A stretch of DNA of 62,989 nt from the NCBI GenBank assembly GCA_052168235.1, contig JBQLZK010000043.1, positions 1-62,989 on the forward strand. The letters run 5' to 3'. Shown in pieces: positions 44,951 through 62,700 of the stretch. Every line of letters begins with the position of its first letter. The first letter of the stretch is position 1. Below the pieces are notes generated by a model. That model saw only the letters and a list, made by a program, of their open reading frames with translations, did not search any database and was not told where the DNA came from. This stretch comes from Thainema sp. (GTDB lineage: Bacteria > Cyanobacteriota > Cyanobacteriia > Phormidesmidales > Phormidesmidaceae). A program made the translations under genes and the position numbers.

Positions 44951-46618
44951 ATGAGTAACCAACGAGAATGGCAGGACAATTTAGCTCTTGGGCAAAATCA
45001 AGTTTTTGAACCTGATCAAAACTATCGAACAAAGGATGAAGATAATAGAACGCTGTTTAACACAGCCACGTTTACTCACGACTATAAACTAGCGCAGGCT
45101 TATGCTAGTGTACGAGTTCTTGAATATCGAGGAGAAGGAGATTTAAAGGTTGAATCCTTTGATGATTATTTAGCTCCTCGCGCCGCTGCTTTAAGAGCAC
45201 GATTCCAATCGATAGAGCATCCTCGCCCGACATTTCCCAGTGATGAAGCCTACCTCAATATGAGAACTCGGCACCACTATCCTTGCGGAGAGGTTTTAAT
45301 CATTGTTGATCAAGCAATTTATGATGCAGTCAGTAAGAGTATTCAACAGTATGTTTTAGACATCGGTCGGGAAGGATACTGGGCTAGTATCTATTCAGTT
45401 AGCGGTGGAGGGCCGCAAGATGTTCGAGGCTTTATTCAACAACATTCCTGTGTTGGGGCTCTACTAATCGGTGCAATTCCAGCACCTTGGTTTGAGCTAG
45501 ATAATGACTTCCATGATCAAAAAACGAGCTTCCCCTGTGATTTATATTATATGGATCGCAATGCTACCTGGAGTGATCCAGATGGTAATGGTAAGTTCAA
45601 TAGTGTCAGTGGTCATGTCGATCCAGAGATTTGGGTAGGGCGGTTATGGACGCCTACTGCTAACGGTAATGATCCGGTCATGATTAATAACTATTTTACC
45701 CGCAATCATGATTTCAGATTGGGCAACCTAGGTCATGCTAATTCTGCTCTAGCTTTTGTAGATGATGACTGGCAAGGTTTCCATGATTGTGCATTTGATG
45801 AACAGTTTTCGTCATCTGCCATTACGACTTACACCAATCCCGACACAACTGATGCTGATTTATACAAAGCCGAAGTAAATTCTCTGCGTTCATGGGTACA
45901 ACTATGTGCTCATTCCTGGACGTATGGACATGCTTTACACGTTCCAGCAGAAAACAAAGATGAATATATTCAAAACAGCTACTTTAAGGATATTAATCCA
46001 CCCAATGCTCACTTCTATAACCTTTTTTGCTGTGGACCAGGTCGCTATACCTCTAGTGATTATTTGGCAGGTTGGTATATTTTTGACAAAGCAGGAGGTG
46101 GCAAAAATCACGGTTTAACCGCTATTGCCAGCGCGAAGTCTGGATCAATGCTCATGTTTGAGGATTTTTATCGTCCTTTAGGACAAGGAGCAGATATTGG
46201 TACCGCTTATCGTCAATGGTGGCAGGCACGAGGGCCATCCCATGATTTGAATGAGCAGCGATGGCATTACGGCATGGTTCTACTCGGTGACCCGACTTTA
46301 ACGTGGTCTAAGGGAGCCGTTCCGACGCTCGAACAGCCAGAAAATGAGAGCGTCTTTGATCATTGGCCCAGAAAGATGCAGTTTCGCTGGTCTCCCGTCA
46401 ACCTACCGAATGTAAAATATCACGTTCAGATTGATTACTTTACCGGGAACTGGGCAGAAGAAACGGGTCGCTCCTGCTTTAATTATCACGATGTTGCGGA
46501 TAACTCGTTAGACTTCAATTTTGTAGGTATGCAGCGGGGACGCTGGCGAGTTCGGGCCAAGGTTAATAACACTTTCTGTAGGTGGTCTCCCTGGTCTTAT
46601 TTCCGCTTTACAGTGTAA
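44951..46618 (+). CDS. Gingipain/C25-like (clan CD) protease with C-terminal beta-sandwich domain
   Basis: CDLYYMD, PEIWVGRL, AH...FCC dyad and VLLGDPTL; GAGG RBS; no signal peptide. Confidence 0.7.
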   Translation: MSNQREWQDNLALGQNQVFEPDQNYRTKDEDNRTLFNTATFTHDYKLAQAYASVRVLEYRGEGDLKVESFDDYLAPRAAALRARFQSIEHPRPTFPSDEAYLNMRTRHHYPCGEVLIIVDQAIYDAVSKSIQQYVLDIGREGYWASIYSVSGGGPQDVRGFIQQHSCVGALLIGAIPAPWFELDNDFHDQKTSFPCDLYYMDRNATWSDPDGNGKFNSVSGHVDPEIWVGRLWTPTANGNDPVMINNYFTRNHDFRLGNLGHANSALAFVDDDWQGFHDCAFDEQFSSSAITTYTNPDTTDADLYKAEVNSLRSWVQLCAHSWTYGHALHVPAENKDEYIQNSYFKDINPPNAHFYNLFCCGPGRYTSSDYLAGWYIFDKAGGGKNHGLTAIASAKSGSMLMFEDFYRPLGQGADIGTAYRQWWQARGPSHDLNEQRWHYGMVLLGDPTLTWSKGAVPTLEQPENESVFDHWPRKMQFRWSPVNLPNVKYHVQIDYFTGNWAEETGRSCFNYHDVADNSLDFNFVGMQRGRWRVRAKVNNTFCRWSPWSYFRFTV

Positions 46619-46645
46619 TGAAGTAAGCTCACTTCAAAGTCGGTA

Positions 46646-46712
46646 AATTATTTTGTGAAAGGTTGAATTTTTAGCCTTTCACAAAATAATTCGGGTTCTT
46701 ACACAAAAACTT
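46646..46712. repeat. Palindromic element, same family as 62828-62926
   Basis: AATTATTTTGTGAAAGG/CCTTTCACAAAATAATT followed by GGGTTCTTA. Confidence 0.7.
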
Positions 46713-46736
46713 GCTATTAGTATAATATTCAAATTT

Positions 46737-46816
46737 GGCGTTGCTTAATCTGGGTATGAATTGTGATGTGGGGGCGGTGCCTCCACATCACAATTCATAC
46801 TTAAAATCAGCAATCC
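46737..46816. mobile_element. Palindromic MITE-like element
   Basis: GGCGTTGCT..GTATGAATTGTGATGTGG / CCACATCACAATTCATAC..AGCAATCC. Confidence 0.65.
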
Positions 46817-46848
46817 CTTCAGATTTATTGCAAAATTGTCATAATGCT

Positions 46849-46894
46849 ATACGCAGATCATCGTATTTTAGCCAGTCAAGATATTTGCCAAAAT
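46849..46894 (+). promoter_or_regulatory. Conserved box 2 plus -10-like hexamer
   Basis: ATACGCAGATCATCGTAT-22 nt-CAAAAT, with TGn. Confidence 0.75.
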
Positions 46895-46959
46895 TAGAGA
46901 TGAAAGAGCGTGTATGCTAAGCCGCTTGAGGTCTACTGTTGGTAGATAGGAGGATCTCA

Positions 46960-47544
46960 ATGTTAGAGCAACCCAAACAGCAGCAAATGCTAACGATTTA
47001 TCTTCAAGAATACAGCAAGCTGAAGGATGAACAGTCTGCTCGAATTGGCTTTCGAGATAATTTGCTCTACGTAACGCTTGGCCTGTTTGGTGGAATTTTG
47101 ACCTTTAGCTTAGGCGAAACGTTAAACCCCTATGCACTTTTAGTTTTACCGTGGGTCAGTCTTATTTTGGGCTGGACATATCTTGTCAATGATCAGAAGA
47201 TTACGGCCATTGGCCGCTACTTACGGTACGGACTAGTCGATAAAGTTCATGCCTTGATTGGTGATGCTGGCCTTGAATCGATCTTTGGTTGGGAGATCGT
47301 CCACAGAAGCGATTTACGACGACAGCGACGAAAACTGGAACAGTTGGTCGTTGATGAGGTGACGTTTGTTCTATCTGGGATCATTGGATTAGTTGTTTTT
47401 GGCTATTTTCTGCATCAGCCATCTTCACTTAATCCTCAGTTGCCGATGATGGCCATTGTATTGCTGATGGGAGTTGAACTCGGTCTGCTGATCATTTTAG
47501 GCATCGAAATTTTTCTGTATGCAGATCTGGCTAAAGGACGCTAG
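46960..47544 (+). CDS. 4-TM membrane protein
   Basis: AGGAGG RBS; EYSKLKDEQSARIGFRDN followed by hydrophobic helices. Confidence 0.8.
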   Translation: MLEQPKQQQMLTIYLQEYSKLKDEQSARIGFRDNLLYVTLGLFGGILTFSLGETLNPYALLVLPWVSLILGWTYLVNDQKITAIGRYLRYGLVDKVHALIGDAGLESIFGWEIVHRSDLRRQRRKLEQLVVDEVTFVLSGIIGLVVFGYFLHQPSSLNPQLPMMAIVLLMGVELGLLIILGIEIFLYADLAKGR

Positions 47545-47558: not shown

Positions 47559-49460
47559 ATGGATCCCCTAATTGATTTTGCGATCGCAACGGCTATCGAA
47601 ATTGAACGACGAGCAGTTTGCCAGATCTTTCAGATAACCGATGACGATCGGGTGTTTGAAGGTTCGCGGGTCTACTGGCGCAAGTCTGTAGCACTGAAAG
47701 ATGGTGAATTCTATGAAGTTGTCGTTGTTCAGTCGCCTGATATGGGCGGAGTCGATTCTGCGCTGCTGATATCCGATACGATTCACCACTGGAATCCAGG
47801 GGCCATTTTGCTGGTTGGAATCGCGGCGGGTGTTGATCGCGCTAAACAGCAATTGGGTGATCTGATAATTGGTCGAGATATCTGTTATTACGAGCGCGGC
47901 AAGCTCACTCCAGAGGGAAAACAGCCTGAGCCAATTATGTATCGGGCTGATTCAACGTTGTGGAGTCGTGTGCAGGCCATTTCGGCTTGGCGTCCCCCGC
48001 CAACCTTGCCCAGACCCGATGGCACATCAGCAGAGCCCAAAATTCACTATAGTGCGATCGCATCTGGTGAAAAGGTAATTGCAGATCCGACAATTCGAGA
48101 TGAAATTACCAGTGGGCACCGCAAGATTGCCGCAATTGAAATGGAAGGCTATGGATTTAGTGCGGCGGCTTGGCAAAGTTTTGATCATATTCGCAGTCTG
48201 GTCATTAAAGCAGTTTGTGATTTTGCTGACACAGAAAAAAGCGATGACTGGCATCTGTATGCAGCCACCGTTGCTGCTAGCTTTGCGTACCATTTTTTAC
48301 AGGATCGACCGCTAGAGCCACGTAATGCCCCTCATCGGTCACCTCCAGCACCTAGTCAATATAAACCTATCATTAATCAATTAAAATTTGGCAATATTGT
48401 GCCTTTTTTGGGGCCAGGAATTAATCCAAATTTATATGTTCAGCTAGCCGCACAATTAGGTCAGTCAATTGAAGATAATCTTGTACATGATCCGAGCTGG
48501 CAGCCATCAGCAAAGCCAAATATTATTCAGCGGCTGATTGGTATGCCGTGTCAAGCTTGCTACTACTTACCCGATGAGCGACCTAAAGAATGCCCCATGC
48601 TGCTTGGTATAGAAAGAGCTCAGCACTGTCCATTATTTATTGAACAGCAGCTAGCAGTTGCCAAAATGAACCTACGCTACCTTTCACAGTACTACAAATT
48701 AACGAATAGTTTAAATACATTCTATGCTCAGTTTTATGACATATTTGAAACAACACAGGGCTCTCCAAATTCAGTTCATCGCTTCTTTGCTGAACTACCA
48801 TTTTTGATGAAGCATAAAGGCTATCCTAATCGTTATCCAGGTTTGCCCTATCAGCTAATTGTAACAACAAATTATGACAACTTGTTAGAACAGGCATTTG
48901 ATAAGATTTACCAACCTTATGACGTTATTTATTATATTGCCGATGGAGATAATCGGGGCAAATATAAGCATCGGTCTTATCAATCCGAAGTAGATGAAAT
49001 CATTGATGATCCTAAAAATTACGATGATCAACTGCCGCTTCGTAAACCGTGGGGGCGTTCGCGGGAACCTCGACCAATTATTTTGAAGCTCTATGGAACA
49101 TGGGAAAATAATTTTGTTGTAGCCGATGATCATCTGATCTATTTGGCTAGCAGTCCGATTCAAAATTTGCCGCCCAGTTTATTTAGAATTCTGTACGAGT
49201 CCAGCGCTTTATTCTTAGGATACAGCCCCAATGATTCTGACTTGCAACTGATTGTTCATCGACTTTGGCAAGATAAACCGCTGCCGGGTGGCTCGCGATT
49301 GATCCATCACTGCCAACCGGGAGAAATTGAGCAAAAAATTTGGCAAGAACAGAGAAATACAGAATTGATTGCGACTACTTGTTCACCAGAAGAATTTGTG
49401 GCTTCGTTGCGACAGGATATTGAAGATTTAGCGCCAAGAATTGCAGAATTCACCAGATGA
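47559..49460 (+). CDS. PNP/MTA-SAH nucleosidase fused to SIR2-like domain
   Basis: PNP motifs VGIAAG, IASGEK, IEMEG and CDFAD; SIR2 motifs PFLGPG, TTNYD, KLYG and FLGYS. Confidence 0.85.
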   Translation: MDPLIDFAIATAIEIERRAVCQIFQITDDDRVFEGSRVYWRKSVALKDGEFYEVVVVQSPDMGGVDSALLISDTIHHWNPGAILLVGIAAGVDRAKQQLGDLIIGRDICYYERGKLTPEGKQPEPIMYRADSTLWSRVQAISAWRPPPTLPRPDGTSAEPKIHYSAIASGEKVIADPTIRDEITSGHRKIAAIEMEGYGFSAAAWQSFDHIRSLVIKAVCDFADTEKSDDWHLYAATVAASFAYHFLQDRPLEPRNAPHRSPPAPSQYKPIINQLKFGNIVPFLGPGINPNLYVQLAAQLGQSIEDNLVHDPSWQPSAKPNIIQRLIGMPCQACYYLPDERPKECPMLLGIERAQHCPLFIEQQLAVAKMNLRYLSQYYKLTNSLNTFYAQFYDIFETTQGSPNSVHRFFAELPFLMKHKGYPNRYPGLPYQLIVTTNYDNLLEQAFDKIYQPYDVIYYIADGDNRGKYKHRSYQSEVDEIIDDPKNYDDQLPLRKPWGRSREPRPIILKLYGTWENNFVVADDHLIYLASSPIQNLPPSLFRILYESSALFLGYSPNDSDLQLIVHRLWQDKPLPGGSRLIHHCQPGEIEQKIWQEQRNTELIATTCSPEEFVASLRQDIEDLAPRIAEFTR

Positions 49461-49480: not shown

Positions 49481-52400
49481 ATGACATCTAATCACAGTAT
49501 CCCCCAAGCATCTGCCAACGATAATCAGGCCAATAATCAAACTAATAATCAAACCAACAATAATGGTCTAACCGATAATAGTGCTGCTGCTGCTTCGGCT
49601 CAACCTGAAGTTTCTGCAGCATCAACTGTGCGATCGCAAACAACACAGTCGGCACAAACAACACAGTCATCACAAGCAGCACTATCAGCCACTTCATCAT
49701 TTCCTAAAAGCCCGTATAAAGGCTTAAATCCCTATGCTGCAACCGATGCAGAGCTGTTCTTTGGTCGAGCCAGGGAAACGCAGCGCATTGTCAATAATCT
49801 GTTAGCTTGGCGGTTAACTGTGCTGTATGGCGAAAGTGGCGTTGGCAAAAGCTCAGTGCTGCGAGCTGGCGTCACCCATGCGTTACAAGAAGAGGCACAG
49901 GACAATCTCGACGATTTTGGTGTGCCTAAGCTAGCCGTTGTCGTTTTTCCGCCGCTACATGGGGAGCGTTTTTGGCAGCAAGATCCGCTACAGAGTTTAG
50001 CGCAGCAAATTGACGAAGATATTCGCCAGAACTATTGGCCAGTTGAGCCACCGGAACCAGGCTTGTCATTTGTGGAGATGCTGCGAGTTTGGACAGAACG
50101 TTTAGGGGGTGAGCAGCGAGATGGTCGCCTATTCATTATTCTGGATCAGTTTGAAGAATATTTTTTGTATCATCCGCAGAATTCACAGGAGAGCGATTTA
50201 GTTACTGCGATCGCACATGTCGTTAATTTGCCTGATCTACAGGTTAACTTTTTGATTTCTCTGCGTGAAGATTCCTATGCCAAACTTGATCGGCTGAGGG
50301 GGCGTCTTCCTAACATATTGGACGTCTGCTTGCACATTGAGCATTTGGATAAACAGTCAGCCTATGATGCCATTACTAAGCCCATTGAGCGCTATAACGA
50401 GCACCAGCCACCTGCACAGAAGATCGACATATCAGCCGATTTAGTAGATGCCATTTTACAAGGCATTCCACAGATCGAAGAGTACAACAGCAACGGAAGG
50501 GCCGGGGTCGAAAAACTCAAAAATCTTCGTAAGAACCAGATTTTGGCTCCTTATCTACAGTTGGTTATGATGCGCCTTTGGGACGAGATGGTGCAAGTGC
50601 GATCGCATGATCTTAGCCTAGAGACATTAATCAATCTGGCCGAATCAGAAACTCCAGATCAAGTTACCAAAATTAGGGCTGCTATTCGTCGGCTAAAAAC
50701 ATCCATACATTGGGCAGATCAAAATGCCCGTGATCAAAATACTCACGATCAAAATACCCAGATTAAGAGAGCTGTCCGCCGAATTGTGCGTGAGCATGTC
50801 ACCACAACGATGGATGCATTATCTCAGCCGGAAAAAGATATTGCTGCCCGGAGCTTTCAATATTTAGTGACTCCATCAGGAACTAAATATGCCTATTCTG
50901 CAACAGATTTAGCCAATTTAATGGGCCGTAATCCAGAATCCGTCATTGCTTTACTAATGAAGCTCGCTCAAAATAAACGTATCATTCGTCCAGTTGGGCC
51001 TTCTCAGGAGCAACCTAATGTTCAGCGATATGAGATTTTCCACGACTTCTTAGCTCAGGCCATTCTCGGTTGGCGAAGAAACTACCTCGAAGAAAAGAAA
51101 AGAAAAAGTAGAATCCAGAAGTCTATTGTTCTAGTGGCAGGCTCCTTTGCTTGCGGTCTCTTCCTACTCAGTCTTTCTGCTTACCATTATCAACAAAGAA
51201 TTAATTGGCTGATTGCAGTGTCAAATGAGTCTATTCAGAAGTTTCATTCAGGTCAACAACTGCTCGCATTACAAGATGCAATAATAGCTGGGCAAGGAAT
51301 CAAGGAGCGCAGTGAAAATAATTTTTTAAAGTATATTTTGCTCAGCCCATCTAAAAGGACAGATGCTGTTAATTTAGCAAAAGAAAATTTGCAGAGTATC
51401 CTAACCCAAATTCAATTACAGCGTTATTATTCAGCTCCTACTGATCAAACGCTTCAGACTGTGTTAAGTCCAGATTGGCAAGTAGTTGCTGTTGTACTAG
51501 CAGATGGCTCTCTTCAGATTTGGGATCAACAAACAGGTGAACTGCTGCACACATTGCGCCAGACATCTGAGAAAACCTTAGCATTACGTTTCAGTTCTGA
51601 TAGCAAGATGTTGGCAGCTGTATTTTTAGATGGAACGATACGTCGTTGGGATTGGCAAAATGGCACTGAACTGGCTCACATCAAAACATTAGAATCACCT
51701 AATCGAGTATTGATGGCTGACTTCAGTGGGGATGGCCAAACACTAGCTGTAGCCTCAACTCATTCTGTATCTGCTGAAGATGTGACGGTGCAATTATGGG
51801 ATTGGCAAGCGGGTACTCCCTATGCTGCCATTCAGCCTTCAGGTTCTTTATCCAGCCTGAAAGTTGGTTCTGATGGACAAACCTTAGTAACGACTTCTAC
51901 TGTTTCCAACAAGACCGATCCTCTTGCTGCTGCAACATCTATCATTCAGCTCTGGAATGGCAAGACTGGTATCGAACAGGCCCAATTCGAGACCGAAAGC
52001 CGCCCCTCGAATCTAGTGTTGAACAATGATGGAAATGTCTTTGCATTTTCCACAGATGATGGCACGGTTGAGCTTTGGGATTTACAAGACAGAGAGTATT
52101 TAAAAGCATTTAAACCTTACGATTTGATTCTGAATCAAATACAGAGCCTGAGCTTTAATCCAGATGGTAGTCTTCTAGCCATTGGTTTTCAAAACGGTCA
52201 GGTTAAGTTATGGGATTGGCAAGACGACAAATTACAGAATCAAATCCAAATGTCAGAACCTGTAAATGATCTAGTTTTTGATCCAACCGGACAGCAAATC
52301 GCAACTCTCTTGAGTCGCAAACATCTTAGTTTTTGGCGTTTGCAATCTCCTGTGACAGCGATGTCAATAAACTCATTTAAAGCATTGGATCGCCTTGGCG

Positions 52401-53338
52401 AACTACGCCTTAGTCCTAATAGCGAGCAAGTCGCTGCTTTATCCTGGCTAGATGGCACGATTCAGCTTTGGAACATAGCAGATCAAAAACTATCAGCTGA
52501 GTTCAATCCAAATGGTCGGGTACAAGATTTTCACTTTAGCCCTGATGGTCAAACGCTTGTCACAGCCTCGGATGATCACTTGGTGCAGCGCTGGAATTTG
52601 CAAGGCAGTCTGATTGATCAGTTTAAGATGCCTAACAGCATAAGATCAGTCAGCTTCAGCCCTGATGGCCAACAGTTATTGACAACGTTAAATGATACTA
52701 AATTAGTGCAGGTCTGGGATTTGCAGGGTATTAAGCGAGCCCAAGTTAATCCCTCCGGTAATGTACTAGCAGCTGACTTTAGTCCTGATGGCCAGTTATT
52801 AATAACTCTCTCAGATAATGGCTCAGTCATATTGCAACTTTGGGATTTGCAGGGGAACGAGCTAGCCCAGTTCAATCCATCGGGTACTACACTAGCAGTT
52901 AACTTTAGTCCTAAAGATCAAATCTTGACAACTGCATCTGATAGCGGTTTTGTACAGTTCTGGAATTTACAAGGTCAGGAGCAAACCCGTTTCAAAGTAG
53001 CGGATGCCATTCGCACAATTAGCTATAGTCCTGATGGTCAGACTTTAGCAACCGCAACTTTCAATAATGATACTGTACAGCTCTGGAATTTGAAGGGCGA
53101 CGAACAAGGTCAATTCAAGGCACCTGGAATAGTTCTAGATTTGCAGTTTAGTATCGATGGCAAATCCCTGATCGCAACATCCCAAAATGGCTTTGTAGAG
53201 CAGTGGCAACTAAATAGCACAAGTTTAGACAGTTTAATTCATCAAGGTTGTGATTGGCTACAGCCTTATTTAGCCAGTCATCCTGATAAAGCACAGGATC
53301 TTCCTTGTCAGTTTAATACTAGTAATCTGTCAAAGTAG
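49481..53338 (+). CDS. nSTAND1-type NTPase - TM - WD40 repeat protein
   Basis: PYKGL, FFGR, GESGVGKSS and IILDQFEE; one TM; many FSPDG..LWD repeats. Confidence 0.9.
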   Translation: MTSNHSIPQASANDNQANNQTNNQTNNNGLTDNSAAAASAQPEVSAASTVRSQTTQSAQTTQSSQAALSATSSFPKSPYKGLNPYAATDAELFFGRARETQRIVNNLLAWRLTVLYGESGVGKSSVLRAGVTHALQEEAQDNLDDFGVPKLAVVVFPPLHGERFWQQDPLQSLAQQIDEDIRQNYWPVEPPEPGLSFVEMLRVWTERLGGEQRDGRLFIILDQFEEYFLYHPQNSQESDLVTAIAHVVNLPDLQVNFLISLREDSYAKLDRLRGRLPNILDVCLHIEHLDKQSAYDAITKPIERYNEHQPPAQKIDISADLVDAILQGIPQIEEYNSNGRAGVEKLKNLRKNQILAPYLQLVMMRLWDEMVQVRSHDLSLETLINLAESETPDQVTKIRAAIRRLKTSIHWADQNARDQNTHDQNTQIKRAVRRIVREHVTTTMDALSQPEKDIAARSFQYLVTPSGTKYAYSATDLANLMGRNPESVIALLMKLAQNKRIIRPVGPSQEQPNVQRYEIFHDFLAQAILGWRRNYLEEKKRKSRIQKSIVLVAGSFACGLFLLSLSAYHYQQRINWLIAVSNESIQKFHSGQQLLALQDAIIAGQGIKERSENNFLKYILLSPSKRTDAVNLAKENLQSILTQIQLQRYYSAPTDQTLQTVLSPDWQVVAVVLADGSLQIWDQQTGELLHTLRQTSEKTLALRFSSDSKMLAAVFLDGTIRRWDWQNGTELAHIKTLESPNRVLMADFSGDGQTLAVASTHSVSAEDVTVQLWDWQAGTPYAAIQPSGSLSSLKVGSDGQTLVTTSTVSNKTDPLAAATSIIQLWNGKTGIEQAQFETESRPSNLVLNNDGNVFAFSTDDGTVELWDLQDREYLKAFKPYDLILNQIQSLSFNPDGSLLAIGFQNGQVKLWDWQDDKLQNQIQMSEPVNDLVFDPTGQQIATLLSRKHLSFWRLQSPVTAMSINSFKALDRLGELRLSPNSEQVAALSWLDGTIQLWNIADQKLSAEFNPNGRVQDFHFSPDGQTLVTASDDHLVQRWNLQGSLIDQFKMPNSIRSVSFSPDGQQLLTTLNDTKLVQVWDLQGIKRAQVNPSGNVLAADFSPDGQLLITLSDNGSVILQLWDLQGNELAQFNPSGTTLAVNFSPKDQILTTASDSGFVQFWNLQGQEQTRFKVADAIRTISYSPDGQTLATATFNNDTVQLWNLKGDEQGQFKAPGIVLDLQFSIDGKSLIATSQNGFVEQWQLNSTSLDSLIHQGCDWLQPYLASHPDKAQDLPCQFNTSNLSK

Positions 53339-53439: not shown

Positions 53440-53856
53440 TTAATTGCTGTCGCAGTCACTATTACAAGGAGCAGGTGTTTGACTCAGTATGGTGTTAGTG
53501 CGGGTATCAACAATCTCATCAAAACAAATTGTTGATCCATCTACAGAGATTAAAACTCGCCGAAACAATGTGTAGTTGTCTAACCAGCGTTGGCAAAGAA
53601 TTGTACGGTTTTCTGTAGGATACAGTTGCGCTACAGCCTGAGATCCATTTGTATTTATTGGGCACTGACTCTCTTGTTTATCCAACGAGAGAAAATGTGG
53701 CTTCTGTTCTAACAAATCGGAATAAGGCTGTAGGTTGTCAATGTTAATCGCAGTATTATGAGCAACTGATTGAGGCGCTGTAGCCACCCATAAGCACGCG
53801 GAACACAAAATTGGGATAGCGACCCTAATGGTGTTGTCAGTCATATCAATCACCAC
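53440..53856 (-). CDS. Small hypothetical Cys-containing protein, probably exported
   Basis: Signal-like N-terminus ending SVA; several Cys. Confidence 0.55.
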   Translation of the reverse strand: MVIDMTDNTIRVAIPILCSACLWVATAPQSVAHNTAINIDNLQPYSDLLEQKPHFLSLDKQESQCPINTNGSQAVAQLYPTENRTILCQRWLDNYTLFRRVLISVDGSTICFDEIVDTRTNTILSQTPAPCNSDCDSN

Positions 53857-54079
53857 CTAGTTCGAGTATAAACCCTATGTAAAAAGCACAAGAGTTGCTG
53901 ATATCAATTAAAAGCATACCAAGCCAACTTTATCCTTATCTTTATCGTGGCATACAAATTGATTAGTTATTTATAATCAAAATAATTATTTAAGAGACAA
54001 AATTTGAGCTTATTTGACTGGTTTGGTAATAAAAAATACAGCTTGTACTGGTGGTTTATTGCGATCGCGTCATATTGAT

Positions 54080-54125
54080 ATACGCAGATCATCGTATTTC
54101 GTCTAGCTGATATTTTTGCCAAGAT
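54080..54125 (+). promoter_or_regulatory. Conserved box 3 plus -10-like hexamer
   Basis: ATACGCAGATCATCGTAT-22 nt-CAAGAT, with TGn. Confidence 0.75.
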
Positions 54126-54217: not shown

Positions 54218-56059
54218 ATGATGCCCTCAACTCAACTATCAAAAATTAAGATTTCTGATTTATCTGACTCATCTCGCTACTTTCCCTCGCCAGTCGCATG
54301 GGAAGATCAGGTCTTTTACTTTTTAATGCTGGATCGATTCTCAGATGGCAATGAGAACGGCTATAAAGATAATCAAGGTAATGTAGTCAGAACAGGAACG
54401 ACGCCGCTAGCGGCTCTGGCTGACCGAGGGAATGCGCTTAAAACTGAGGAAGATGCCCGTCACTGGCGGGAAGCTGGTACTCGATACGTTGGTGGAAATC
54501 TGAAAGGTTTAACTCAAAAGATTGGCTACCTCAAGCGATTAGGAATCACAGCCGTTTGGGTCAGCCCCATTTTTGAGCAGGTACGTTTTCAGGAAACCTA
54601 TCATGGCTACGGGATTCAAAATTTTCTAGAGGTAGAACCCCGGTTTGGTACGTCTGATGATTTGAAGAAATTGGTAAAGGTAGCCCATGAAAATGGTATT
54701 TACGTGATTCTGGATATTATTTTGAATCACGCGGGAAATGTCTTTTCTTACAAAAGCAACCGTAACCCTGTCTGGACGGGTCAAACTTATCCTGTGGAGG
54801 GATACAACGATAAGGAAGGAAATCCTACTATTCCATTTAGGAAACCTGATCCACAAAACCTGCCGGATAGTGATGGAGCAGTCTGGCCTGCTGAATTTCA
54901 AGATCCAGCGACCTTTACCCAGAAGGGGCGTATTCAACATTGGGACGATGACCCCGAATTTCTAGAGGGTGACTTCTGCGACTTGAAGGACATCCATCAT
55001 GGTCAAGGTACACCGGACGAGTATCAGGTTTCAAACGCTCTGCGCTATTTGTGCGAGGTTTATAAATATTGGATTGCCTTTGCAGACATTGATGGCTTTC
55101 GGATCGATACCGTCAAACATATGGATATTGGTGCAACTCGCTACTTTGTCTCGGTCATTCGTGAGTTCACCCAGAGTATGGGTAAAGAAAACTTCTTCCT
55201 GCTGGGCGAGATCACAGGTGGCCGCCAAAGGGCGTATGAAACGCTAGGATTGACTGGGCTTAGCGCAGCTCTGGGCATCGATGATATCCCTGATAAGTTG
55301 GAATATCTGGTCAAAGGTTATCGCAATCCAAGTGAATACTTTGATCTGTTCCGTAATTCAGAATTGGTTCACAAAAGTTCCCATATCTGGTTCCGCAACA
55401 AGGTTGTAACCTCGTTTGACGATCACGATCAGGTTAGAAAAGGTAATCATAAAGCGCGCTTCTGTGCATACAACCAGGGCGAAAAGGTTATTCTCAACGT
55501 TCTGGCGCTGAATGCCCTCACCCTGGGTATCCCTTGTATTTACTACGGTAGCGAGCAATGCTTTGACGGTGAAGGAGGATGCGATCGCTATATCCGAGAA
55601 GCCATGTTCGGTGGCGAATTTGGAGCGTTCCGATCCAAAGGAGTTCACTTCTTTGACGACAATAATCCGGTTTACCAGGAACTGGCCAAAATTTTAGACA
55701 TTCGCCGCAAATCCATCACGCTGCGACGCGGACGACAGTATCTACGACCGATTTCAGCTCCAGAAGATGGGGTGAGGTTTAGCTATCCACGCATGATCAA
55801 CGGCCAGATCCGTTCAGTCGTGCCTTGGTCTCGACTCTTCAATCACCATGAAATATTGTTAGCCATCAATACTGATTATGATCAGCCCAGAACTGCCTGG
55901 GTAACGATTGACAACGATTTGCATCAATCTGGTGATTCGCTCAAGTGTATTTATTCAACTGATCCTGTCCAAGTTAGCCAAACTATTTCTATCGAAGCAC
56001 GAAATGGAAAGGCAGTATTGATGACTGTTCCGGCAGCAGGATTTGTAATTTTTGGATAG
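54218..56059 (+). CDS. GH13 alpha-amylase family glycoside hydrolase
   Basis: YHGY, DIILNH, GFRIDTVKH, GE and DDHD motifs. Confidence 0.92.
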   Translation: MMPSTQLSKIKISDLSDSSRYFPSPVAWEDQVFYFLMLDRFSDGNENGYKDNQGNVVRTGTTPLAALADRGNALKTEEDARHWREAGTRYVGGNLKGLTQKIGYLKRLGITAVWVSPIFEQVRFQETYHGYGIQNFLEVEPRFGTSDDLKKLVKVAHENGIYVILDIILNHAGNVFSYKSNRNPVWTGQTYPVEGYNDKEGNPTIPFRKPDPQNLPDSDGAVWPAEFQDPATFTQKGRIQHWDDDPEFLEGDFCDLKDIHHGQGTPDEYQVSNALRYLCEVYKYWIAFADIDGFRIDTVKHMDIGATRYFVSVIREFTQSMGKENFFLLGEITGGRQRAYETLGLTGLSAALGIDDIPDKLEYLVKGYRNPSEYFDLFRNSELVHKSSHIWFRNKVVTSFDDHDQVRKGNHKARFCAYNQGEKVILNVLALNALTLGIPCIYYGSEQCFDGEGGCDRYIREAMFGGEFGAFRSKGVHFFDDNNPVYQELAKILDIRRKSITLRRGRQYLRPISAPEDGVRFSYPRMINGQIRSVVPWSRLFNHHEILLAINTDYDQPRTAWVTIDNDLHQSGDSLKCIYSTDPVQVSQTISIEARNGKAVLMTVPAAGFVIFG

Positions 56060-56184: not shown

Positions 56185-57312
56185 ATGACTGCAAAGTCTT
56201 TACCGAACAAAAATTCTGTTGAAAAGCGTTGGACTTTTCTAGCCTATATAGCTGGCGATAATAATTTAAGTAATGCCGGTCTTGAAGATATCCAAGAACT
56301 ATGTGATGAAGGCGCATCACCCGATGTGTATGCAGGGGTAGAGATTGACACGTATGGGGAGTTTTCTGGTTCGATTCGATATGAAATTACTGAACCAGAT
56401 TTCTCGGGAGAAGCTCACCGAACCGTAATTGAGCGACTACCAGAGAAAGACTCTGGCGATCCAGAATCGTTAACCTCTTTTCTCACATGGGGTTTATCAA
56501 GGTATCCGGCTCAAAACCAGGTTGTTGTTATTTGGAACCACGGTTCAGGATTTAGATACAGGAATCGAGATATTGGCTTTGATGACTTCGGTTCATCGTT
56601 AGATATGCCCGAGGTTGAAATGGCATTTCGGCGGGCCGGTATTACGGCTGAGAACAAAGTCACTATTCTGGGCTTTGATGCATGTTTAATGAATATGCTT
56701 GAAATTGCACATCATCTTCGCGATCAGGCTGAATTTATTGTTGGTTCACAAGAAACTGAACCAGGCGATGGCTGGCCCTATGACAAAGTTTTAAGGACTA
56801 TGAAATCTGCCACTTCAGGTGTTGAGCTTGCAAAAGGAATTGTTCAAGAATACATCAAAGACTATACCGATCTTGGCGTTCAGAATGTAACACAGTCCGC
56901 GATTGATACTTCGAAGACAGAAGCTGCAGTTCAAGCATTCAGTAATTTGGGGCTGCTTCTTAAGGATAAAGTAGAAACCTGCAAATCGGAATTGAGAAGA
57001 TTACGGGCGCAGTTACAAGCCTTTGAATATGCAGACTATGTCGATCTGGTTCATCTAGTTGAGCTATTACCTCAGTTTATCAATGAACCAGATGTTGCTC
57101 AAGCAGCCGAAAACGTTCGCTTAGCTGCACTAGCTTGTGTTGTTGCATCAGATAAATATGGTCAAGCGGTGCAGAATGCAAATGGTTTATCGATTTGGTT
57201 TCCACCTGCTCCCCGAATTTATTTTAACTATCGAGCAAAATATACAGCGTTGAATTTCGCCCTTAATTCGCCTGGATGGGTCAGTTTTTTAGATGCCTAT
57301 TTTGCGAATTAG
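56185..57312 (+). CDS. Clostripain-family (C11) cysteine protease
   Basis: YIAGDNNL, WNHGSG, GFDACLM and GSQETEPGDGWPY motifs. Confidence 0.9.
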   Translation: MTAKSLPNKNSVEKRWTFLAYIAGDNNLSNAGLEDIQELCDEGASPDVYAGVEIDTYGEFSGSIRYEITEPDFSGEAHRTVIERLPEKDSGDPESLTSFLTWGLSRYPAQNQVVVIWNHGSGFRYRNRDIGFDDFGSSLDMPEVEMAFRRAGITAENKVTILGFDACLMNMLEIAHHLRDQAEFIVGSQETEPGDGWPYDKVLRTMKSATSGVELAKGIVQEYIKDYTDLGVQNVTQSAIDTSKTEAAVQAFSNLGLLLKDKVETCKSELRRLRAQLQAFEYADYVDLVHLVELLPQFINEPDVAQAAENVRLAALACVVASDKYGQAVQNANGLSIWFPPAPRIYFNYRAKYTALNFALNSPGWVSFLDAYFAN

Positions 57313-57482: not shown

Positions 57483-59096
57483 ATGGAAGAGTCAAAAAAG
57501 CTTTCTAAAACACAGCAGAATATTCCAACATCGAAAGAATCACCTTTTCGCTCTATACCGAGCGAATGGTTAGGGGGATATTTCATCGTAGAACATAGCA
57601 TTTGTGGAAATCGAGATGTCCCTAACGCAGATGACGATGTGTGGGGATTTGTTAATAATCGGGCAGATTGGCAAGGAAAAAACTTTGTATACGCAAACCG
57701 AAACGTTTGGGCTACCGATTTTCAAAGTAATTCTGACTACTATTCAGTACCCAGTTTGCCCAACGGTTATGATGGGGTTGATGCCGTTCATATTGCTTAT
57801 ATCCATACTCATGGAGGTACGGATATTAATACAAACATCTTTTACTTATCTATGGGTGGAAACCCTAGCCACGGCGGTTGTCAAGTGAGATCGCAAGACA
57901 TGCGCTTGGGCAATAACAAACTCCGCTATCTGTTCTTGATTGCCTGCCAATCGGTTCAGACAAACCCGATTCCTGTTTGGGGAAGCGCATCTCAAGGTAT
58001 TCGTGCTTTCTTTGGTTTCCACACCAATGCATTAGATGCTGCGAGCTACGGAAAGAAATTTTTTGAGAAGTGGAAGTCTTCTAATAGCGCCAAGACAACC
58101 GATGCCTTCCTGGATGCGAGTTGGGATGTTAGTCATGAGCAAATTGCTGTTACTGCATGGTGCGGGCCTGATCTCGCTACAGCCTGTAATTATCGCGATC
58201 AGGAAACGCATTTTCAGATCGCTCCGGTAACCTGTGGGGCTATGGCTTGGGCACATACAGCTATTCGTGCTTTGCCGAGCCGCTCACGAATGGCAAGTGC
58301 TCCTACGGCGATCATTCAGTTCAGAAAGCCTGAACCGGAACCTCATCGGCTCTTCAGGATGACGGGGCGCGATCCGGTAGCCACTGAGCCAATTAGCCAA
58401 GAACCCTCTAGCGACTTGTATGAATGCTATACCTACGGTGAAGCAACCTTGCTGTATAACAAAGCTTCAGGTGCCACTGATTTGCGAATTTCTACGACGA
58501 ATACCGCTATGGCAGCAGAATTGAGTGATGAAGAAGCGATTGAACTAGCTCAGTCTTATCTTCAGCAAAATCCGAGCTTGCTAGCAACCATACAGCCTCG
58601 TGCGGCGGATATGGCTTATGAACTTGTTCCAGTTGCGATTCGAGATACCGTCAAAGGGAGCGGAGAGATAGATGCACCTGAAAATTCTGTAGAGACACGG
58701 ACTGAAGTAACAGTTGTGTTCCGGCCTATGATTGGCAACATTCCCACAATTGGGACTGGCGGAGTGCTTGAAATTACGCTAAATGGCGATAGACAAGTAG
58801 TCAGAGTCCGTAATGTGCTGCGCGAGATTGCAACTGTAGAGCGGCGTAACGGTGAATATGATGTCAGCCGCTTGCAGGCAGAAGCTGAACGGCGAGCCTT
58901 GGCAGAAGTTAATAGTGAACCCAGAATCGATCGCTGCGAAATTCTCAAGACAGAATTTGGCTTCTTTTCTGCTGATGCTAGCACGGCTCAAGACTCAGCA
59001 CGCTTGGCTTTCCGCATTCTATTGGAAGTTCAAAGTGGCGATTTTGAACAGTGGATTGAAAAGATTTATTACCTAGATGATTTGTCAGAAAGCTAG
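57483..59096 (+). CDS. DUF6345-like protein, probable caspase-fold protease domain
   Basis: DAVHIAYIHTHGG...LGNNKLRYLFLIACQ His-Gly/Cys pattern. Confidence 0.6.
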   Translation: MEESKKLSKTQQNIPTSKESPFRSIPSEWLGGYFIVEHSICGNRDVPNADDDVWGFVNNRADWQGKNFVYANRNVWATDFQSNSDYYSVPSLPNGYDGVDAVHIAYIHTHGGTDINTNIFYLSMGGNPSHGGCQVRSQDMRLGNNKLRYLFLIACQSVQTNPIPVWGSASQGIRAFFGFHTNALDAASYGKKFFEKWKSSNSAKTTDAFLDASWDVSHEQIAVTAWCGPDLATACNYRDQETHFQIAPVTCGAMAWAHTAIRALPSRSRMASAPTAIIQFRKPEPEPHRLFRMTGRDPVATEPISQEPSSDLYECYTYGEATLLYNKASGATDLRISTTNTAMAAELSDEEAIELAQSYLQQNPSLLATIQPRAADMAYELVPVAIRDTVKGSGEIDAPENSVETRTEVTVVFRPMIGNIPTIGTGGVLEITLNGDRQVVRVRNVLREIATVERRNGEYDVSRLQAEAERRALAEVNSEPRIDRCEILKTEFGFFSADASTAQDSARLAFRILLEVQSGDFEQWIEKIYYLDDLSES

Positions 59097-59192
59097 TTTT
59101 TGCGATCGCACTTTTCTAATCGGCACCTCTCTACTCGCTAAACCTATCTCATAGCCAATCAGAACTCCACACCCTACACATAGGAGGCTGAG

Positions 59193-61472
59193 ATGTCAGT
59201 TCCATTTTTTGATGAAGAATTTACTTTCACCCAACCCGATGGCACACAGTTTCAAGCCAAAGGCTGGGGCGACCAGCACTACGCAATTTTTGAGACGCTT
59301 GATGGCTTTACCATTGTGCAAGATCCGGAAACCGGATTTTACTGCTATGCGAGAGCCAATGAAGACGCGAGTGAATTAGAATCAACAGGTGTCAAAGTCG
59401 GTTTAGTCGAACCGAGTAACTTAGCTCTCAGTCCTCATACTCGGCTGAATCCCAGTGTAGCGAAAGAAAGAGCCTTGCAAGCAGCAGGCCAGATGGAATT
59501 GAAGCGGCGTTGTGAAGAACGACGCGAGCAAGCCAAGCAGAGACTTCGACAATCGCTGCGTGCAACAGGCCCTCTAGCGGCTCCTCCGGGTCGTCAAATC
59601 CAAGGTCAGTACGTAGGCCTATGCCTCTTGATCCAGTTCCCCGATGTGCCTGGAACAATTTCCCAGCAGGAGGTGAGTGACTTCTGCAACAAACCGGGCT
59701 ACAGCGGCTACGGCAATAAGGGATCGGTGTATGACTATTTTTACGACAATTCCGAGGGCAAATTAGAGTACACCAACCTGGTGACGACCTACTATACCGC
59801 TAAGCAGCCACGTGCTTACTATACCAATGAAGCGATTGAGCAGGGGACGCGAGCCAGGGAGCTGATCAAAGAAGGGCTTGCGGAATTAAAGCGTCAGGGC
59901 TTTGATTTCAGCACTTTAAGTGTTGATGATCAGGGATATATCTATGCCGTCAATGTGTTCTATGCCGGACCTCGCGTCAACAATTGGGCTCAAGGGCTGT
60001 GGCCTCATGCTTGGTCTCTCGCTCAACCCTATGAGCTAGCTCCGGGCAAGCAAGCGTTTGACTACCAAATTACCAACATGGGTAGCGAACTGTCACTTGG
60101 AACGTTTTGCCATGAAAATGGGCACATGCTGTGTGACTATCCCGACCTCTACGACTATGGCGATCAGTCCAGTGGAGTGGGCCATTACTGCCTAATGGGG
60201 TACGGTGGTTCCGATAAGAAAAACCCAGTTCAGATTGGGGCTTACTTAAAATACAAGTCGGGCTGGGCGAATCCGCTGACGCTGATTCAGCAAAACGTAC
60301 AGGAGGCGACGATCGCAGCAGGAAAAAATGACTTTTTTCTCTATCCAAAACATCAAGCAGAATACTTTATCATCGAGAATCGGCAGAAAGCTGGGCGTGA
60401 TGCCGCCTTACCCAGCAAGGGATTGGCGATTTGGCATGTCGATGAATTGGGCAGCAATGATCATGAGCAGATGACGGCTTCCCTACATTATGAATGCTCG
60501 CTCGAACAGGCTGACAATCAGTTTGATTTGGAACATCACCTCAATCCTGGGGATGCGGGAGACTTATTTGCCAAAGACAAACTGTTTTCTAGCATTACTA
60601 GCCCCAGCAGCAACTGGTGGGATGGTACTCCATCGAGGCTGACGATTTGTGACATCAGCGAAGCTGGCTCACCGATGACCTTCCGGGTGCAGATTGGGGA
60701 TGATGAGGGTGAAACCCAGCTGTTCCAGGCTACCTCGACCCCGGCCCAGGATATTCCTGATAATAGTCAGGTTGGCATTCGGGATGGCATTCGGTTTACA
60801 GAAGCTGCGATCGCAACTTCGATCAAAGTTAGCGTGGATATTACCCATCCTTATCGAGGCGACCTGCGCGTGACGCTCTCCAATCCTCTCGGTCGAGCAG
60901 TCGTGCTACACGATCGGCTAGGTGGGCGGGAGGATGACCTGAAGCGCACGTTTGATCTAACATCCAGTCCAGCTTTGCGGAACTTTCTGGGCCAATCGCT
61001 ACAGGGTGAGTGGGTGCTGCACGTACAAGACCTGGCTCCGTCTGATGTGGGTCGCTTCAACAGTTGGAGTTTAGCAATTGAAGGAAAGGTCAAGGGTGGA
61101 GCGGTAATTGCTCTTGAGGAGTCCCCTGGAGTCGATATTCCCGATAACGATCCGGTTGGCATTGAACGAACCCTAACCGTTGAGACTGCGGGGCCAATGA
61201 AAGAGGTCGAGGTGAGCGTGGACATCACCCACACCTATGTCCAGGATTTAATCGTGACGCTGATCTCGCCACAGGGCACAAAGGTGGATCTGCATCATCG
61301 CAGCGGTGGCGCAGCGGATAACATCATCAAAACCTATACCCTGCAAACCACGCCGGGTCTGCAACAGCTCATTGGGCAGTCCATACAGGGTGGATGGGGA
61401 CTAAAAGTGGTTGATGTTGCGAGCCAAGATCGCGGCAAGTTGAACCGCTGGTCACTGAAGCTGAAACGGTGA
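59193..61472 (+). CDS. M6 (immune inhibitor A-type) metalloprotease with two proprotein-convertase P domains
   Basis: TQPDG pro-region, CHENGH..PDLYD, YFIIENR and two DITH.Y..DL repeats. Confidence 0.9.
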   Translation: MSVPFFDEEFTFTQPDGTQFQAKGWGDQHYAIFETLDGFTIVQDPETGFYCYARANEDASELESTGVKVGLVEPSNLALSPHTRLNPSVAKERALQAAGQMELKRRCEERREQAKQRLRQSLRATGPLAAPPGRQIQGQYVGLCLLIQFPDVPGTISQQEVSDFCNKPGYSGYGNKGSVYDYFYDNSEGKLEYTNLVTTYYTAKQPRAYYTNEAIEQGTRARELIKEGLAELKRQGFDFSTLSVDDQGYIYAVNVFYAGPRVNNWAQGLWPHAWSLAQPYELAPGKQAFDYQITNMGSELSLGTFCHENGHMLCDYPDLYDYGDQSSGVGHYCLMGYGGSDKKNPVQIGAYLKYKSGWANPLTLIQQNVQEATIAAGKNDFFLYPKHQAEYFIIENRQKAGRDAALPSKGLAIWHVDELGSNDHEQMTASLHYECSLEQADNQFDLEHHLNPGDAGDLFAKDKLFSSITSPSSNWWDGTPSRLTICDISEAGSPMTFRVQIGDDEGETQLFQATSTPAQDIPDNSQVGIRDGIRFTEAAIATSIKVSVDITHPYRGDLRVTLSNPLGRAVVLHDRLGGREDDLKRTFDLTSSPALRNFLGQSLQGEWVLHVQDLAPSDVGRFNSWSLAIEGKVKGGAVIALEESPGVDIPDNDPVGIERTLTVETAGPMKEVEVSVDITHTYVQDLIVTLISPQGTKVDLHHRSGGAADNIIKTYTLQTTPGLQQLIGQSIQGGWGLKVVDVASQDRGKLNRWSLKLKR

Positions 61473-61487
61473 TGGAGGAAAAGGGCG

Positions 61488-61790
61488 ATGTTTAGAGGAT
61501 TTCGTCGTCGGTGGCGATGGGTCATGTTAGGTGCGATCGCAGGTTTGGCAATCCTTCTGTCTGCACTAATTTCGCATCCTAGTCCAGCTCAGCCATCATC
61601 ACCCAACCCAACCTCCGTTGATCAGCCAACTATTAACCAGCCCACGATTGACCAGCCAGCCCATAATTCATCATCGTTTCTGCTGGCGCATGGTGTCGAT
61701 ATTCGCGATCCCATTTGCGATGTCTACCCTAATACACCTTATAAGGTTGCGTCATCAAGGAGGCACATCGGTGAAAGGTACAACAATTAA
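61488..61790 (+). CDS. Hypothetical signal-peptide protein, possibly a fragment
   Basis: Basic and hydrophobic N-terminus, QPTI repeats; overlaps the next start. Confidence 0.4.
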   Translation: MFRGFRRRWRWVMLGAIAGLAILLSALISHPSPAQPSSPNPTSVDQPTINQPTIDQPAHNSSSFLLAHGVDIRDPICDVYPNTPYKVASSRRHIGERYNN

Positions 61791-62700
61791 AAATCTACCG
61801 CTGATTAAGGTGGTGGATGGTGACACGATTAAAGTTCGCTTAAACGATGGGTCGGAATCAATTCGCTTTGTTTGTCTCGATACCGAAGAAAGCCAGCGAG
61901 GCGGCAGTAAACCCGTTACCAATGCGGGCATTCTCGCTTCTAAATGGGCCAAAACCTACTTTGGTGCGGATGACGCAGGTTTACCGACCGGGGATGTGCG
62001 GGTCGATTTGGAATTTGACACCAATGATCCGGTAGATGTGTGTCTGCGTAAACATCGCGGCAACTACGGTCGATTAATTTGTTATGTCTACAAAGCAGGA
62101 GAACCAGAGAACTTTAACGTACGAATTGTGCGTGAAGGCTGGAGCCCTTACTTTGTCAAATATGGGCGTTCCCGTCTCTATCATCAGCAGTTTGTTGCAG
62201 CGGAGATGGAGGCGCAGGCTAAGGGACTAGGAATTTGGAATCCCGCTACAAATGCAGGTGGCAATACTAGGGATTACAGCATGCTGATTCCCTGGTGGCA
62301 TCTACGCGATTCCGTTGTGCAAGACTATCGCTATACGGGCGATCAGTCTGGGGCGCTGTCGGTGCGAATCAATTACGACGACATCGTCGCAGCGGCGCGG
62401 GCAGAGCAGGAGCTGACCGTCTTATGTGATTTGCAAGGGGGGATCAATAAGTGGCCCGGTAATGGTGCTCTGATTTATGCCGGATCGCCGTTCCAGAAGT
62501 TTAATCTCTGGATTCCTGAGCGAGATTCAGCAACGGCTCAAACAATTTTGCGTTTAATTGAAACTCGCTATGCTAAGACTGGTCGGGGTTACGTCTATGT
62601 ATCTGGCACGGCTAGTTTGTATCCGCCAACGGCGGATGGTAATCCGCAAATGGTGCTGACAGCAGTTGAACAACTGGCTGACTTTCCGCCAGGAAGCTAG
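61771..62700 (+). CDS. Thermonuclease (SNase) family protein with C-terminal extension
   Basis: VVDGDT, IRFVCLDTEE, YGRLICYV and AQAKGLGIW; AGGAGG before GTG at 61771. Confidence 0.88.
   Translation: MKGTTIKNLPLIKVVDGDTIKVRLNDGSESIRFVCLDTEESQRGGSKPVTNAGILASKWAKTYFGADDAGLPTGDVRVDLEFDTNDPVDVCLRKHRGNYGRLICYVYKAGEPENFNVRIVREGWSPYFVKYGRSRLYHQQFVAAEMEAQAKGLGIWNPATNAGGNTRDYSMLIPWWHLRDSVVQDYRYTGDQSGALSVRINYDDIVAAARAEQELTVLCDLQGGINKWPGNGALIYAGSPFQKFNLWIPERDSATAQTILRLIETRYAKTGRGYVYVSGTASLYPPTADGNPQMVLTAVEQLADFPPGS

Follow-up and report, generated by a model that had tools for sequence, protein, structure and literature searches.

Contig JBQLZK010000043.1 of the cyanobacterium Thainema sp. (GenBank assembly GCA_052168235.1) was analysed over its whole length of 62,989 nucleotides (hereafter the window). 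Its segment from 44.1 to 62.8 kb was found to hold six genes for degradative enzymes (C25-like, C11, DUF6345, M6, GH13 and SNase) together with a STAND-NTPase module of defence type. We tentatively interpret this segment, at a little less than an even chance, as encoding an inducible intracellular effector set tied to a defence or cell-death response. It would be a largely low-GC3 (G+C fraction at third codon positions), probably acquired island in the cyanobacterial chromosome, in which degradative enzymes devoid of signal peptides are joined to a conflict module of STAND-NTPase type, made up of a membrane protein, a PNPase-SIR2 effector and an nSTAND1-WD40 sensor. The C25-like gene, the STAND unit and the GH13 gene, the latter probably with the genes behind it, appear to have the same DNA element at their front, near a gene for a LuxR-type regulator; since this element is common to the three units, they are most likely switched on together. 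Because the enzymes keep their catalytic residues and carry no export signal, their site of action is most likely the interior of the cell that makes them, where protein, glucan, nucleic acid and NAD+/nucleotides would be the targets of a defence or self-digestion response.

According to the listing of open reading frames (ORFs), all sizeable ORFs of the segment are on the + strand except one (53440-53856). Families were assigned through Pfam, NCBIfam and PADLOC scans of 12 ORFs between 44 and 63 kb. The features are the following, HTH standing for helix-turn-helix:

44094..44798, +, LuxR/GerE-type HTH regulator, 234 aa (PF00196 GerE, E 1.1e-17, residues 164-218; N-terminal ~160 aa without family match)
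44792..44821, +, shared promoter/operator-like element, copy 1 (30-nt pattern, 1 mismatch)
44951..46618, +, C25-like (gingipain-fold) cysteine peptidase homologue, 555 aa, with C-terminal FN3-like domain (Foldseek; PF01364 in relatives)
46838..46867, +, shared element, copy 2 (exact 30-nt match)
46939..47544, +, integral membrane protein of an unnamed family, 201 aa (hydropathy)
47559..49460, +, PNPase (PNP_UDP_1) + SIR2_2 protein, 633 aa (PF01048, E 8.8e-12; PF13289, E 3.5e-15)
49481..53338, +, nSTAND1 NTPase with WD40 propellers, 1285 aa (PF20703, WD40)
53440..53856, -, small ORF, 138 aa from GTG, signal-peptide-like N-terminus, doubtful gene (ORF listing, hydropathy)
54069..54098, +, shared element, copy 3 (exact 30-nt match, 20-nt core also exact)
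54218..56059, +, GH13 alpha-amylase-family hydrolase, 613 aa (PF00128, E 1.2e-43)
56185..57312, +, C11 clostripain-related cysteine peptidase, 375 aa (PF03415, E 2.1e-51)
57483..59096, +, DUF6345 protein, 537 aa (PF19872, E 1.7e-21)
59193..61472, +, M6-family metalloprotease with two C-terminal P-domains, 759 aa (TIGR03296, E 1.4e-52; P_proprotein x2)
61488..61790, +, orf100, 100 aa, textbook Sec-type signal peptide (sequence, hydropathy)
61771..62700, +, SNase-family nuclease, 309 aa, corrected GTG start (PF00565, E 5.1e-9)
62745..62791, strand not assigned, G+C-rich hairpin with A/T runs on both sides, likely terminator (inverted repeat, 22-nt arms, 95% complementary)

The six enzymes announced in the initial annotation of this DNA were all found at their places, and a motif search recovered every catalytic motif quoted for them. 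The term hydrolase set used there was appropriate for these six proteins but incomplete, as the membrane protein, the PNPase-SIR2 and nSTAND1-WD40 proteins and two small ORFs with signal-peptide-like N-termini also lie inside the span. The HIP1 octamer GCGATCGC, the repetition of which is a cyanobacterial mark, occurred 59 times versus about 2 expected.

The link between the units is a 71-nt direct repeat, detected in three copies by a repeat search. Its 30-nt core, GTCATAWTNNTATACGCRGATCATCGTATT, matched at 44792, 46838 and 54069, always on the + strand, with three matches versus 0.00 expected from shuffled sequences; a 20-nt core behaved alike. The copies are located 130 nt before the start of the C25-like gene, 72 nt before the unit formed by the membrane protein, PNPase-SIR2 and nSTAND1 genes, and 120 nt before the GH13 gene; copy 1 includes the LuxR-type gene's stop codon. 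The element displayed a TGnCATAAT-like -10 sequence and a 20-bp imperfect palindrome, a size expected for a dimeric HTH protein. Copy 2 overlapped a promoter-scan match (TTCAGA/16/CATAAT with an upstream TG), in a scan for promoters and terminators that was in total no better than chance (37 versus 36.8 and 18 versus 17.1). A structured RNA was considered and rejected, the fold z-scores of the copies being -0.31, +0.71 and -1.77 and Rfam returning only sub-threshold hairpins; the lack of a consistent RNA fold and of an Rfam match fits a site acting at the DNA level. These features suggest that the element is a shared promoter/operator and a sign of joint control of at least three units, with the LuxR-type protein as their presumed co-regulator.

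Beyond the GH13 gene, M6, orf100 and SNase are tightly joined, orf100 starting 15 nt past the M6 stop and overlapping the SNase start by 20 nt in another frame, and the strong G+C-rich hairpin at 62745..62791 closes the series. A single transcript from GH13 to SNase is possible on this arrangement.

Further repeated sequences were recorded around these units. The 10-mer TATACGCAGA, which forms the left half of the palindrome in the element, occurred again at 62910-62919, 210 nt past the SNase stop and inside an inverted repeat with 49-nt arms (62827-62927); about 0.07 such occurrences would be expected by chance in the whole window. Long, A+T-rich and near-perfect palindromes followed the nSTAND1 gene (53342-53404), the C25-like gene (46646-46691 and 46741-46813) and the GH13 gene (56082-56126), and their Rfam matches were limited to unrelated microRNA hairpin models below threshold.

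The unit behind copy 2 has the composition of a predicted STAND conflict system, namely a STAND NTPase with a repeat sensor and an adjacent effector. The nSTAND1 protein scored 129 bits with PF20703 (cut-off 27.1) and its WD40 part was recognised at E 1.7e-44. Its gene is 20 nt away from that of the PNPase-SIR2 protein, which matched the PADLOC family PDC-M60C (E 4.4e-35) and is predicted to be an effector directed at NAD+ and nucleotides. The 201-aa membrane protein contains three hydrophobic segments above the 19-aa hydropathy threshold; it gave no Pfam match, and the Atlas clusters closest to it (score 0.96) consist of unnamed membrane proteins. The N-terminus of the nSTAND1 protein is of low complexity and rich in Gln, Asn and Thr. 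Between its NTPase and WD40 parts, the sequence KKRKSR is followed by the protein's one hydrophobic segment, around residues 545-568, so that the WD40 propellers may be located outside the cytoplasm. A tie to type III CRISPR systems was indicated by PADLOC matches to C3a212 ('SNc+LTD') and C3a214 ('GlgB'), at E 1.1e-14 and 1.5e-64. It was dropped because these clusters have three members each, from different genomes (Shah et al. 2018), the scores are weak and the window contains no cas genes; no Cas family was found among the 51 window proteins scanned.

The initial annotation had claimed that the N-termini of the six enzymes carry no signal peptide, and this was borne out. The in-frame codons back to the previous stop number 1 for C25-like, 7 for GH13, 4 for C11, 1 for DUF6345 and 3 for M6, which makes longer N-termini impossible in these five genes, and each of their ATGs is preceded by a GAGG- or GGAGG-like sequence. 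Export was assessed by a hydropathy rule that differs from SignalP and that unusual signals would escape: the best 10-residue Kyte-Doolittle window starting within the first 30 residues had to score at least 2.0 and contain no charged residue. The five controls expected to be exported, namely ZnuA, both small ORFs and a pair of M6 homologues, were all flagged, against none of five housekeeping or cytoplasmic proteins. None of the six enzymes was flagged. An independent gene call, taken from a protein collection, had identical starts in 6 of 10 cases and agreed for C25-like, C11 and M6.

Signal peptides at alternative starts, seen in the initial annotation as what would overturn its idea, did not appear; the only hydrophobic stretch was that of the longest SNase ORF (TTG 61618), the start of which was corrected. 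The 888 SNase relatives were informative here: the best 120 measure 288-331 aa and are 67-81% identical, the well-named ones being cyanobacterial, and the 40 for which N-termini were printed all begin with MKGT or MQGT. The start was set at GTG 61771 because it reproduces this length (309 aa) and these N-termini and is preceded, 4 nt upstream, by AAGGAGG. The nuclease itself scored about 37 bits with PF00565 (cut-off 21), which places it in the SNase family, and contains DGDT and LDTEE, which we take to have catalytic roles. A frameshifted SNase with orf100 as its lost N-terminus was also envisaged and rejected, the lengths and N-termini of the relatives showing SNase to be whole from 61771; orf100 would thus be an independent small exported protein. 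It contains a Pro/Thr/Gln-rich stretch, is the single member of its 90%-identity cluster and was predicted identically in the independent gene call. Neither orf100 nor the ORF at 53440-53856 gave a Pfam match, and the exact GTG start of the latter is absent from the protein collection.

The same hydropathy rule was applied to the best-listed relatives of three enzymes, and exported-looking N-termini were recorded in 0 of 120 for C25-like, 0 of 120 for SNase and 21 of 67 for DUF6345. Judged from these N-termini, the signal-less state is a trait of the whole C25-like and SNase subfamilies, which are predicted to be cytoplasmic throughout. The earlier statement that relatives of such enzymes are usually exported thus fails for C25-like and SNase and applies in part only to DUF6345. 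Signal peptides are likewise missing from two GH13 homologues encoded on Nostoc plasmids and from the closest plasmid-encoded C11 homologue. A cytoplasmic location of the enzymes is therefore well supported as a prediction.

The M6 protease differs from its homologues in this respect. It scored 179.3 bits with TIGR03296 (cut-off 110.8) and 27.8 with PF05547 (cut-off 22) and displays HENGH at residues 307-311, all in line with membership of the family. Homologues from Clostridium acetobutylicum (38% identical) and Pseudoalteromonas (36% identical) carry signal peptides of 26 and 22 aa, respectively, after which they align from residue 2 of the window protein; another contig provided a member of its 90%-identity cluster with the same start. 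On these alignments, the window M6 is an enzyme that has lost the signal peptide relative to its homologues and starts at their mature N-terminus.

Three of the enzymes had been grouped in the initial annotation as caspase-fold proteases, and clan-CD-like folds or conserved His...Cys pairs in clan-CD order were indeed observed in all three. The C25-like protein displays AH at 320-321 and CC at 360-361, with a His-to-Cys spacing of 40 residues. Its own sequence gave no Pfam match even at E<=10, and a profile of its family searched against PDB sequences returned no gingipain (best E 0.19). Yet 23 of 31 aligned relatives match PF01364 (best E 3.5e-8), and in the top Atlas cluster (score 0.99) this model covers 64% of the members. 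The AlphaFold model, with a predicted local distance difference test (pLDDT) of 71 and a predicted template modelling score (pTM) of 0.81, falls below pLDDT 50 around residues 319-322 and 360-364. In Foldseek it matched Kgp (4rbm, E 6e-12) and RgpB (1cvr, E 5e-11) over ~510 columns, with template modelling (TM) scores by target of 0.50 and 0.53, while its C-terminal domain matched FN3-like folds; the model thus has a gingipain-like catalytic-domain fold. H321 and C361 are invariant in the 31 aligned sequences and, in the model, each follows a beta-strand; they may be equivalent to the gingipain dyad. Relatives number at least 764, and the best 120 are 56-85% identical and nearly all 545-572 aa long. 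Those named among the 120 listed include cyanobacterial, proteobacterial, Desulfobacterales and Acidobacteriota proteins, plus one from a Promethearchaeota assembly. A single weak tblastn match was obtained on plasmids. To our knowledge, no member of this ~555-aa subfamily has been studied, and a signal-less, gingipain-fold family from several phyla, so far uncharacterised, is thereby brought to notice.

The DUF6345 protein scored 77.2 bits with PF19872 (cut-off 26.9), in agreement with membership of this family, and contains THG at 109-111 and AC at 154-155 (H110 and C155, 45 residues apart). A profile search among 1.84 billion representatives returned 336 relatives at E<=0.001, and a word-based search nine. 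An alignment was built from the 67 near-full-length sequences among 150 listed, the remainder being partial or fragmentary; His110 is conserved in 67/67, Gly111 in 64/67 and Cys155 in 65/67. Searching the profile against PDB sequences gave nothing meaningful (best E 0.19). The predicted structure (pLDDT 74, pTM 0.79) places a strand followed by HG at 104-111 and a strand followed by AC at 149-155. The question whether this model is caspase-like, raised in the initial annotation, was answered positively by Foldseek on the N-domain, for which pLDDT is only 41-86: it matched SAVED-CHAT (8tl0_C, E 2.1e-4, probability 1.00), caspase-11 (6ns7_B, probability 0.95), caspase-9 (1jxq_A, 0.92) and MALT1 chains. 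The modelled N-domain is thus consistent with the clan CD (caspase-hemoglobinase) fold, and this uncharacterised family can be credited here with a caspase-like N-domain, as predicted by the model, and a near-invariant His/Cys pair. A full-text literature search for DUF6345 yielded one article, by its listing unrelated in topic. Residues ~250-537 resembled, in Foldseek, 5coz, YycI/YycH, YpeB and the vibriolysin propeptide (PepSY-like folds), and in some relatives a signal peptide at the N-terminus and a DUF4384 domain are present in addition.

Membership of the C11 protein is supported by a nearly complete PF03415 match (176 bits versus a cut-off of 25.8, profile positions 2-357 of 359) and by NHG at 118-120 and DAC at 165-167 (H119 and C167, 48 residues apart). 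Its His-Gly and Asp-Ala-Cys stretches aligned with those of a solved C11 protein (PDB 6n9j, E 2.1e-18). Clostripain proper was excluded as an identity, the score with TIGR02806 being 49.2 bits versus an equivalog cut-off of 550. The GH13 protein contains DIILNH, GFRID, GEIT and FDDHD, presumably the conserved regions I-IV with the catalytic Asp/Glu/Asp, and belongs to its family on these grounds.

The strongest competing explanation is that the enzymes are cytoplasmic proteins without relation to each other, placed by chance in a variable region next to a STAND defence module; the element would then connect no more than the C25-like gene, the STAND unit and the GH13 gene. GH13, for instance, might act in the turnover of glucans and C11 in the maturation of peptides, and SNase might be a conserved cyanobacterial gene. 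We regard this explanation as a serious possibility, although clearly below an even chance. Several observations favour it and weigh against an effector set. Nine related loci were compared (three for DUF6345 homologues, one for C11, two for M6, one for SNase and two for GH13), two of them cut by contig ends. They represent distant relatives (30-46% identity) rather than the closest ones (85% for C25-like, 81% for SNase and 47% for DUF6345). The DUF6345 loci, two mycobacterial and one from Desulfomonilaceae, came from a genome scan with the alignment, and the other six are plasmid loci. When 12 window proteins were searched there by tblastn, none of the nine loci contained a second member (E<=1e-3), so the co-occurrence analysis proposed in the initial annotation did not reveal a set conserved elsewhere. 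The three DUF6345 loci had unrelated neighbour genes according to Pfam, and the stretch 54218-62700 gave no megablast match on plasmids. The spreads of the families are also very unequal, from the nine DUF6345 proteins of the word-based search to at least 764 C25-like and 888 SNase proteins, and the SNase subfamily, at the 67-81% identity seen in the best 120, is shared by many cyanobacteria. The nearest C11 plasmid homologue (Skermanella plasmid, 5940-9128, 36% identical) overlaps a TfuA-like gene that follows a YcaO gene, a context suggestive of another type of function, which for some cytoplasmic C11 enzymes may be the maturation of peptides.

Base composition and local organization add to this side. 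GC3 was 0.31-0.45 from the LuxR-type gene to DUF6345 (0.31 for LuxR and 0.32 for C11), 0.53 for M6 and 0.47 for SNase, versus 0.44-0.67 in 17 core genes (most at 0.53-0.67, three at 0.44-0.50); M6 and SNase are thus more host-like than the other genes of the island, which also speaks against a dedicated cascade. A pattern search did not find the element upstream of C11, DUF6345 or M6, and the GH13, C11, DUF6345 and M6 genes are separated by gaps of 96-170 nt and by hairpins without T-runs. No effector-associated adaptor domain was assigned in the general domain scans, which included no search aimed at such domains.

Nevertheless, an assembly of unrelated neighbours accounts poorly for other observations. 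Three copies of the element precede three units, among which are two hydrolase genes; six degradative enzymes are encoded on one strand within 18 kb; M6 is devoid of the signal peptide carried by its homologues; and M6, orf100 and SNase are tightly joined. The inducible effector set is further supported by a second defence-type cluster at 31.9-39 kb in the window. The idea put forward in the initial annotation was supported for the intracellular location rather than for a cascade: a jointly controlled intracellular role receives some support from the element and from the STAND/PNPase-SIR2 pair, but the set was not conserved (0/9) and the element is absent before C11, DUF6345 and M6. Altogether, the sequence data suggest joint control, while the nine loci, the unequal family spreads and the host-like composition of M6 and SNase argue against a dedicated protease cascade.

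A more ambitious version of the effector set, which we consider unlikely, would be a single LuxR-controlled regulon made of a STAND sensor, an effector destroying NAD+ and nucleotides, and a cytoplasmic execution set comprising three clan-CD proteases, the M6 protease without its signal peptide, the nuclease and the hydrolase acting on glucan. Such a regulon would be the bacterial counterpart of apoptotic demolition, using enzymes with normally extracellular relatives.

The enzymes might instead leave the cell without Sec or Tat signals, through lysis, vesicles or an unrecognised route, and act outside as scavengers. Their relatives are often exported (both M6 homologues and 21 of 67 DUF6345 relatives), M6 contains P-domains and the C25-like protein an FN3-like domain, types often seen in enzymes working outside the cell, and the island includes two small ORFs that begin with signal peptides. 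Yet no secretion-system genes were detected among the 12 scanned ORFs, the 0/120 counts for both C25-like and SNase fit a cytoplasmic role, and no C-terminal secretion motif was recognised, no formal search for one having been made; such export seems rather improbable. Finally, a gene-calling artefact hiding signal peptides at true starts further upstream, for which the hydrophobic stretch behind TTG 61618 was the one indication, can practically be dismissed, being refuted for five genes by the stops 1-7 codons upstream and disfavoured for SNase by 120 relatives of like length, 40 N-termini and the Shine-Dalgarno sequence; the independent call is also concordant for C25-like, C11 and M6.

Elsewhere in the window, the second defence-type cluster (31892-39060) displayed a GC3 of 0.31-0.35 and is separated from the hydrolase island by core genes (PpsA, GAPDH). 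It encodes a 142-aa protein matching PADLOC PDC-M52B (E 3.5e-54), a 280-aa protein without match, a 751-aa E2/E1(ThiF)/JAB fusion, a 379-aa protein with weak matches to LmuA and DRT-associated MBL, and a WYL/WCX regulator. At 7144-18407, a zinc-limitation-type cluster, entirely on the - strand, includes a znuABC-like transporter, two CobW-family GTPases, GTP cyclohydrolase I, SufE and cysteinyl-tRNA synthetase. A Gp49-like/HTH_3 pair overlapping by 23 nt on the + strand (3637-4297) resembles toxin-antitoxin modules of HigB/HigA type.

Should the units be co-induced and intracellular, they would show, in a concrete and testable form, degradative enzymes of several classes brought together in a single bacterial response of defence or cell death. 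For such systems, domain architectures have so far been the main source of prediction. If the genes are mere neighbours, the segment is an ordinary variable island.

Compared with the gingipains Kgp and RgpB (MEROPS C25), the C25-like protein shares the catalytic-domain fold, the following beta-sandwich domain and a His...Cys pair in clan-CD order. It lacks a signal peptide, a recognised propeptide and the C-terminal domain of the type IX secretion system, misses the Pfam model with its own sequence, and has Ser instead of Gly after the His. Likewise, the C11 protein resembles clostripain and PmC11 (MEROPS C11) by its full-length PF03415 match and by the His-Gly and Asp-Ala-Cys stretches aligned with 6n9j, and departs from them by the absence of a signal or lipoprotein sequence. 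The M6 protein has the M6 domain above curated cut-offs, the HExxH motif and the C-terminal accessory domains of the Immune inhibitor A/PrtV type, but its homologues, which are 36-38% identical, begin with a signal peptide of 22-26 aa that it lacks.

Caspase-like defence proteases (SAVED-CHAT of CBASS, Csx29 of Cas7-11, and MALT1 and the caspases) have the folds that were matched by the DUF6345 N-domain and the C25-like model, and these two window proteins, predicted to be intracellular, also adjoin immune-type genes. The likeness is at the level of the fold alone (8-14% identity), and no SAVED, TPR or CRISPR partner occurs at the locus.

A parallel for the organization of the STAND unit is found in the STAND-NTPase conflict systems of multicellular bacteria (Kaur et al. 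2020, PMC7159879; 2021, PMC8195603). The peptidases discussed there are of caspase and trypsin types, unlike the C25-like, C11 and DUF6345 proteins encoded here, and neither 'clostripain' nor 'gingipain' occurs in the main text of PMC7159879. Passages of PMC8195603 and PMC10907252 list PNPase, SIR2, TIR, caspase and trypsin domains among the effectors, and nSTAND1 is a STAND clade named there in predicted counter-invader systems. The unit conforms to this description, with an nSTAND1 protein carrying C-terminal repeats that adjoins a PNPase + SIR2 protein.

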